Source: Escherichia coli (GTDB lineage Bacteria; Pseudomonadota; Gammaproteobacteria; Enterobacterales; Enterobacteriaceae). From it: 64,000 nt of DNA. This document shows, piece by piece, positions 51,219 through 51,392 of the stretch (positions are counted from its first letter, which is position 1; each line of letters starts with the position of its first letter). The stretch lies in assembly GCF_051903065.1 (NCBI RefSeq), contig NZ_CP178438.1, one strand, 5' to 3'. The position numbers were made by a program, and so were the translations under genes. Under the pieces are notes generated by a model. The model did not search any database and was not told the origin of the DNA. It saw only the letters and a list, made by a program, of their open reading frames with translations.

Positions 51219-51392
51219 ATGGCAAACCATCGAGGCGGTTCCGGCAATTTTGCAGAAGACCGCGAAAGAGCATCAGAAGCAGGTAAAAAAGGTGGACAGC
51301 ACAGCGGGGGTAATTTCAAGAATGACCCGCAGCGCGCATCTGAAGCAGGTAAAAAAGGTGGCAAGAGCAGTCACGGCAAAAGCGACAACTAG
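51219..51392 (+). CDS. ymdF: KGG-repeat stress-induced small protein
   Basis: 57-aa ORF MANHRGGSGNFAEDRERASEAGKKGGQHSGGNFKNDPQRASEAGKKGGKSSHGKSDN with internal repeat; GGAGG RBS before ATG 51219. Confidence 0.85.
   Translation: MANHRGGSGNFAEDRERASEAGKKGGQHSGGNFKNDPQRASEAGKKGGKSSHGKSDN

Follow-up and report, generated by a model that had tools for sequence, protein, structure and literature searches.

In a proteome study of Salmonella, ymdF was found to be sigma-S-dependent, and YmdF, YciG and STM14_1829 were detected by mass spectrometry as sigma-S-dependent KGG-repeat paralogues of YciG, which is listed there as a hydrophilin (PMC5437024). By qRT-PCR, lower amounts of ymdF transcripts were observed in delta-rpoS Salmonella (PMC7161692). 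The latter paper also cites transcriptome and proteome studies of rpoS in E. coli, and cites Oguri 2019 for the lack of structure in solution reported for the Salmonella orthologues. Deletion of ymdF in E. coli resulted in a thin, patchy biofilm and in about 100-fold more killing by H2O2 in biofilm, and ymdF and PA2146 of P. aeruginosa complemented each other (PMC9262955). In S. Typhimurium at pH 4.5, a modest growth defect was reported in the yciG ymdF double mutant and in the triple mutant and none in the single mutants (bioRxiv 10.64898/2026.04.09.717482), while overexpression of ymdF shifted persister counts in opposite directions depending on the drug (bioRxiv 10.1101/310961). The gene, its family, its regulation and the disordered nature of its product have all been described in the literature, and practically every genome has the locus annotated. 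The additions made here are a corrected unit length, a remark on a Walker-A match and the description of a one-unit allele along with its likely origin.

The window analysed here is a stretch of 64,000 nucleotides from the chromosome of Escherichia coli. The ymdF gene and the signals flanking it were positioned as follows.

51219-51392, plus strand: ymdF coding sequence (57 amino acids and stop), from the open reading frame list and its translation, the Pfam KGG match, and the annotation in K-12 and in a 100%-identical O145 genome
51208-51212, plus strand: Shine-Dalgarno sequence GGAGG, read from the sequence, 6 nt before the ymdF ATG
51447-51467, serving either strand: G+C-rich hairpin with T-runs on both strands, predicted bidirectional terminator; the terminator scan found the same 8-pair stem on both strands

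The open reading frame begins with the ATG at 51219 on the plus strand, its stop codon ends at 51392 and its product is MANHRGGSGNFAEDRERASEAGKKGGQHSGGNFKNDPQRASEAGKKGGKSSHGKSDN (57 aa). The product is identical to UniProt YMDF_ECOLI (P56614) and to K-12 b4518, annotated as ymdF, which confirms the gene name given in the first-pass annotation. The best-matching genome, E. coli O145 strain RM9872, showed 100% identity over 50850-51480 and carries the same gene name. The local gene order is agp, yccJ (minus), wrbA (minus), ymdF (plus), rutG (minus) and rutF (minus); ymdF stands alone, transcribed away from wrbA-yccJ and towards the convergent rutG. The agp-yccJ-wrbA-ymdF synteny is kept in four other genera, Salmonella, Klebsiella, Citrobacter and Enterobacter, and the locus is present in 5,414 of the 5,426 complete E. 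coli genomes. Strain D53-1 is one of the few complete genomes without ymdF; there an IS1B (3188-3960 of the compared segment) replaces ymdF, rutG and part of rutF. Genes of this kind had been described in the first-pass annotation as often under-annotated, which was not found here, as every inspected match except that in D53-1, where the gene is lost, coincided with a coding sequence annotated as ymdF or 'general stress protein'. RefSeq uses the names 'general stress protein' and 'con-10 family general stress protein' for YmdF. An HMM scan of NCBIfam release 20 with YmdF gave no family at E<=1, so these names must stem from other PGAP evidence. PLSDB contains 13 'plasmid' records bearing ymdF-rutG (e.g. 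CP099174.1 and NZ_CP141089.1; 0.16-4.9 Mb, all non-mobilizable). A plasmid location of ymdF was rejected, since these records are large, non-mobilizable and carry rutG too, and they were taken as mislabelled pieces of chromosome.

The GGAGGT and the ATG of ymdF are invariant in E. coli, Salmonella, Klebsiella, Citrobacter and Enterobacter in a five-genus alignment. Intact YmdF lacking the initiator methionine was detected by top-down mass spectrometry in colonies of E. coli BL21 (5748.73 Da, 66% fragment coverage; PMC5594050), which confirms the start codon given in the annotation. Translation of a longer protein from the in-frame ATGs at 51189 and 51192 was rejected because Salmonella has a stop codon there and the measured mass is that of the 57-residue form minus methionine. 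The same detection already refutes the idea that the reading frame is a chance or non-coding one and the repeat a DNA-level element (a regulatory repeat or sRNA). The shortness of the frame and a weak downstream Rfam match to sroD would agree with such an element, but the Pfam match is strong and the genera differ at synonymous sites while keeping the protein sequence and the surroundings of the start codon, leaving this idea practically no probability. The sroD match was the only result of an Rfam scan of 50700-51600, below threshold (E=0.17, 21 bits against a gathering score of 50). It covers the terminator hairpin and was taken as chance. A 78-aa TTG open reading frame at 51050-51286 and the antisense frames across ymdF are likewise without support, as the region between the conserved blocks is variable and indel-rich across genera.

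The terminator hairpin is common to ymdF on the plus strand and the convergent rutG on the minus strand, whose stop codon is at 51475. The ymdF-rutG spacer has 82 bp in the window (51393-51474) against 256 bp in K-12 MG1655 (2256-2511 of the compared segment). The extra stretch of about 174 bp in K-12 holds two REP-like palindromes between two slightly different copies of the terminator hairpin, and it looks as if a BIME/REP unit had been inserted into the hairpin.

The wrbA-ymdF spacer was aligned across the five genera E. coli, Salmonella, Klebsiella, Citrobacter and Enterobacter. It showed discrete conserved blocks amid variable, indel-rich sequence. Two of them are relevant to the promoter of ymdF.

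51125-51133, plus strand: candidate sigma-S-type -10 element CTAAGCTTA, inside the conserved block TTCACTAAGCTTA (51120-51132); predicted
51182-51201, plus strand: near-invariant block ATGCAATATGATGTCTATAC of the five-genus alignment, directly upstream of the Shine-Dalgarno sequence

The sigma-S extended -10 consensus is CTAYRCTTAA. The CTAAGCTTA block reads CTATGCTTA in Salmonella and Citrobacter, a form which closely resembles this consensus, and CTAAGCTTA is retained as a candidate only. A perfect 12-bp palindrome, ACTAAGCTTAGT (51124-51135), overlaps this candidate in E. coli and is imperfect in the other genera. The block ATGCAATATGATGTCTATAC contains TATGAT (51188-51193), CTATAC (51196-51201) and the sigma-S -10-like TGTCTATAC (51194-51201), and may represent two alternative -10 candidates or an element of the 5'-UTR. 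A simple sigma-70 scan, which is uninformative for sigma-S, made no call on this block. On the basis of sequence, CTAAGCTTA, TATGAT and CTATAC were considered as three candidates for the ymdF promoter.

Further conserved features are found in the wrbA-proximal part of the spacer (50899-51040), namely TTTAAAGATA, AGAGTGCAAAT, TTTGATTTATAACAA, TTGT.GCAAAATGA.ACATTTTT and an inverted repeat ATAAG-N5-CTTAT, presumably the wrbA promoter along with regulator sites. A small hairpin, GCGGG-TCTG-CCCGC (51103-51116), lies between the conserved blocks. In O157:H7 it is destroyed by a change of CTGCCCG (51108-51114) to AGAAACA, and this loss is probably neutral as the region lacks conservation across genera.

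Tandem units of about 22 residues with a K/R-G-G core, a trait of the KGG family, are found in YmdF. The Pfam KGG model (PF10685) matched YmdF in two stretches with 67 bits (cut-off 20.4; E=1.6e-18), in agreement with the KGG class given in the first-pass annotation, for which a Pfam search had been named as the check. The best stretch, residues 32-52, covers profile positions 1-22 of 22. The units and the exact cores inside them are positioned as follows.

51243-51304, plus strand: KGG unit 1 (DNA copy 1; residues about 8-29), repeat search family D1; first Pfam KGG stretch
51309-51370, plus strand: KGG unit 2 (DNA copy 2; residues about 30-51), repeat search family D1; best Pfam KGG stretch, residues 32-52
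51276-51295, plus strand: copy 1 of the exact 20-nt core GAAGCAGGTAAAAAAGGTGG, at the left end of the deletion; the coding sequence has no longer exact direct repeat
51342-51361, plus strand: copy 2 of the exact 20-nt core GAAGCAGGTAAAAAAGGTGG, at the right end of the deletion; the coding sequence has no longer exact direct repeat

Two internal copies had been noticed earlier in the 57-residue product, and both quoted strings are indeed present, matched by two DNA copies (51243-51304 and 51309-51370) which are spaced by 66 nt and 71% identical in the repeat search. The unit length given with them, about 19 residues, needs correction: the true period is 22 aa or 66 nt, and the quoted strings are 17 aa long. 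The 22-residue unit has the length of the Pfam KGG model, 15 of the 22 residues are identical between the two units, and each unit ends in AGKKGG. The longest exact direct repeat in ymdF, 20 nt, compares with a mean of 7.7 and a maximum of 13 in 300 codon shuffles of the coding sequence, and the best 62-nt self-match reached 44 against a mean of 29 and a maximum of 38 in 300 such shuffles. As the repeat exceeds all shuffles, it is real and not an artefact of composition.

A HMMER scan of 1.84 billion cluster representatives with YmdF gave 639 relatives at E<=1e-3. When a unit HMM was applied to the best 150 of them, 105 had two units and 40 had three, while 4 had one unit and a single protein had four. 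Near YmdF, two units are the norm, yet the unit number varies within the family. A sequence search of the PDB with YmdF gave no relative and no solved homologue. In a 60-aa E. coli protein from nr the first unit is YciG-like (MTEHRGGAGNFAEDRQKASDAGRKGG), whereas the second unit and the tail resemble YmdF; recombination between yciG and ymdF or divergence of an allele may explain it.

YmdF is a basic protein of 57 residues (pI 9.9), rich in glycine and charged residues. Glycine makes up 21.1% of the chain, the mean Kyte-Doolittle hydropathy (GRAVY) is -1.71 and only three residues are hydrophobic. Hydrophilins were defined by a glycine content >6% and a hydrophilicity index >1 (Garay-Arroyo et al. 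2000), and YmdF is a hydrophilin by this definition. The earlier reading as a small hydrophilic, sigma-S-regulated stress protein of the KGG class is correct and is already in the literature. AlphaFold2 modelling with an alignment of 29 sequences gave a mean pLDDT of 56.5 and a pTM of 0.24 with no residue reaching 70, and placed one weak, low-confidence helix in each unit (residues 15-24 and 37-46). The model fits a disordered chain with transient helical propensity, the low pLDDT being compatible with disorder and no proof of it.

Residues 48-55 of YmdF (GKSSHGKS, window 51360-51383) fit the Walker-A pattern GxxxxGK[ST], and the excerpt of the Pfam family text quoted in PMC9262955 mentions for YciG a Walker-A-like motif after the KGG repeats; the paper itself credits YciG with the motif and, by implication, leaves YmdF without it. 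A minimal nucleotide-binding peptide acting through this string could be imagined on these grounds. At the same position, however, Klebsiella has GKNSHGSR, Salmonella GKSSNRNS and Enterobacter GKNSHGGN, and the pattern was absent in 4/4 orthologues (Klebsiella, Salmonella, Citrobacter and Enterobacter). The string lies in the unstructured C-terminal tail, the least confident part of the model (pLDDT 47). A P-loop requires a strand-loop-helix fold, which is beyond a chain of 57 residues dominated by glycine, lysine and serine, and in a tail rich in these residues the pattern is expected by chance. Nucleotide binding is therefore considered very improbable. Because the string is not conserved in orthologues and falls in the floppiest part of the model, the match in E. 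coli YmdF is probably a chance product of the G/K/S-rich tail and not a defining feature.

Comparison of units across genera hints at the history of the repeat. Orthologous units are alike at 52-61 of 66 nt between genera, while the two units within one gene are alike at 36-44 of 66. The units thus go back to an old 66-nt tandem duplication, with no general concerted evolution. Exact repeats within ymdF reach 20 nt in E. coli and only 8-9 nt in Salmonella, Klebsiella, Citrobacter and Enterobacter, and among the five genera compared the 20-nt identical core is found only in Escherichia. Unit 1 of E. coli has AAA (Lys) where the other genera have CGN (Arg), and unit 2 has GGT...GGT where they have GGC...GGG; all these codon changes make the cores identical. 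Copying of the unit-1 core from yciG was rejected, as yciG keeps CGT (Arg) and differs at synonymous sites. Since yciG lacks the Escherichia version of the ymdF core, a short intragenic conversion in the Escherichia lineage is the likeliest source. After the old duplication, the unit cores would then have become identical over 20 nt in this lineage.

The 20-nt cores coincide with the endpoints of a deletion found in other strains. An O157:H7 genome aligned with the window in two pieces, and precisely 66 nt are cleanly missing between the cores. The deletion is in frame and leaves a one-unit product of 35 aa, MANHRGGSGNFAEDRERASEAGKKGGKSSHGKSDN (WP_001273654.1), whose annotation drops the gene name ymdF. 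Comparison of repeat copy number across strains had been put forward in the first-pass annotation as a check, and it showed two units as the norm and the one-unit allele in 339 of 5,426 complete E. coli genomes (about 6%), counted as full-length matches of a 34-nt junction probe which does not seed on ordinary two-unit alleles. With a less strict cut-off the count rose to 476 genomes, which is too high because a TCT>TCA change lets two-unit alleles match the probe at 33 of its 34 nt; a tighter E-value gave the 339. The carriers are mostly O157:H7 (EDL933, Xuzhou21, TW14588 and others), and the allele is also present in an APEC O2:K1:H4 strain, in a pig isolate and in other genomes of 4.7-5.2 Mb. 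Forms of 35 aa were found by exact look-up in E. albertii (50 contigs), E. fergusonii and Shigella flexneri.

The flanks of three one-unit carriers represent three haplotypes, the APEC flank matching a two-unit extraintestinal strain and not O157. On account of these haplotypes the deletion most likely arose repeatedly, although recombination could in principle have moved one allele. Misalignment between the 20-nt cores, by replication slippage or short-homology recombination, would repeatedly delete exactly one unit in frame, the outcome being a 35-residue one-unit allele which is fixed in the O157:H7 lineage. The 34-mer predicted for a three-unit junction had no match in the 5,426 complete E. 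coli genomes. The first-pass annotation had called the locus duplication-prone: instability of the repeat is borne out by the recurrent loss of a unit, whereas expansion is not. The ymdF locus is contraction-prone and not expansion-prone. Database proteins of 63-91 aa that resemble expansions were rejected, as they owe their length to starts called too far upstream or to frameshifts that read through the C-terminal end, apart from one three-unit protein which shares 76% identity with YmdF. In the literature searched, no paper was found on the one-unit ymdF allele.

The two-unit and one-unit alleles offer a ready-made, isogenic-style contrast for what a KGG unit does, and they predict a mass shift from about 5.75 to about 3.5 kDa for a small, abundant protein that shows up in whole-cell mass spectra; both are minor points. 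It is quite doubtful that the one-unit allele, arising from core homogenisation and a contraction hotspot in Escherichia, is non-neutral and alters the KGG dose and hence stress tolerance, biofilm or acid phenotypes.

The phenotypes reported for YmdF differ between laboratories and species. By analogy, a hydrophilin-type protectant role can be proposed. Published work shows that YmdF is produced under RpoS control in stationary phase, biofilm and acid, and accumulates as an intact, methionine-processed, unstructured polypeptide. Each unit of this disordered, highly hydrated chain is predicted to form a short transient helix. The chain would shield or buffer other macromolecules under stress in a roughly stoichiometric manner and be partly redundant with its paralogue YciG, a redundancy which would account for mild phenotypes in single mutants and stronger ones in multiple mutants. 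This mechanism rests on the hydrophilin/LEA analogy and is held tentatively, a little short of evenly balanced.

YmdF could instead be a specific regulatory disordered protein with one or a few defined partners, in biofilm signalling of the SagS/BrlR type or in flagellar synthesis, rather than a general protectant. Expression of E. coli ymdF in P. aeruginosa restored the biofilm architecture and tobramycin tolerance of delta-PA2146 and delta-sagS (PMC9262955), and the Salmonella paralogues were reported to alter flagellum-dependent motility (Oguri 2019, in the form cited in bioRxiv 10.64898/2026.04.09.717482 and PMC7161692). The effect on motility, however, depended on the Salmonella background and failed to appear in S. 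Enteritidis (PMC7161692), and YmdF is not known to have a partner. The low complexity of YmdF and the variation from one to four units among its relatives fit a dosage-type function better than a lock-and-key interface, and a whole pathogen lineage tolerates the one-unit allele. A specific regulatory role is considered rather unlikely. Taken as a whole, the account of ymdF as the gene for an RpoS-controlled, disordered two-unit protein with a proposed protectant role, from which a unit is lost by misalignment of the cores, is very probably right.

Among known systems, K-12 YmdF (b4518, P56614) is the closest, with the same 57-aa sequence, the same agp-yccJ-wrbA genes upstream and the rut operon downstream. 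The protein shows no difference between K-12 and the window strain, and the window lacks the K-12 insert of about 174 bp with REP elements between ymdF and rutG. YciG of E. coli (b1259) shares with YmdF the two KGG units and the N-terminal HRGGSGNFAEDR start, with a mean column identity of 85% in the DNA alignment, and both are RpoS-dependent hydrophilins (PMC5437024, PMC7161692). Unlike YmdF, YciG is encoded at another locus in the yciGFE operon and has a different C-terminal tail, and yciG keeps the arginine in the core of unit 1 and lacks any long exact repeat within the gene. PA2146 of P. aeruginosa and YmdF1-3 of K. pneumoniae are small KGG proteins as well; biofilm growth induces them strongly, and they and E. 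coli ymdF can functionally replace one another (PMC9262955). They differ from E. coli YmdF in belonging to other genera and in the number of paralogues. More distant are GsiB of B. subtilis, con-10 of Neurospora, plant LEA proteins and yeast proteins of the Hsp12 type, which are glycine-rich, hydrophilic, disordered, stress-induced and built of short repeats like YmdF. GsiB and con-10 are members of the KGG family, as YmdF is, whereas LEA proteins and Hsp12 are its analogues and not homologues. All of these are longer than YmdF and have more units, and for them protectant activity has been shown experimentally.
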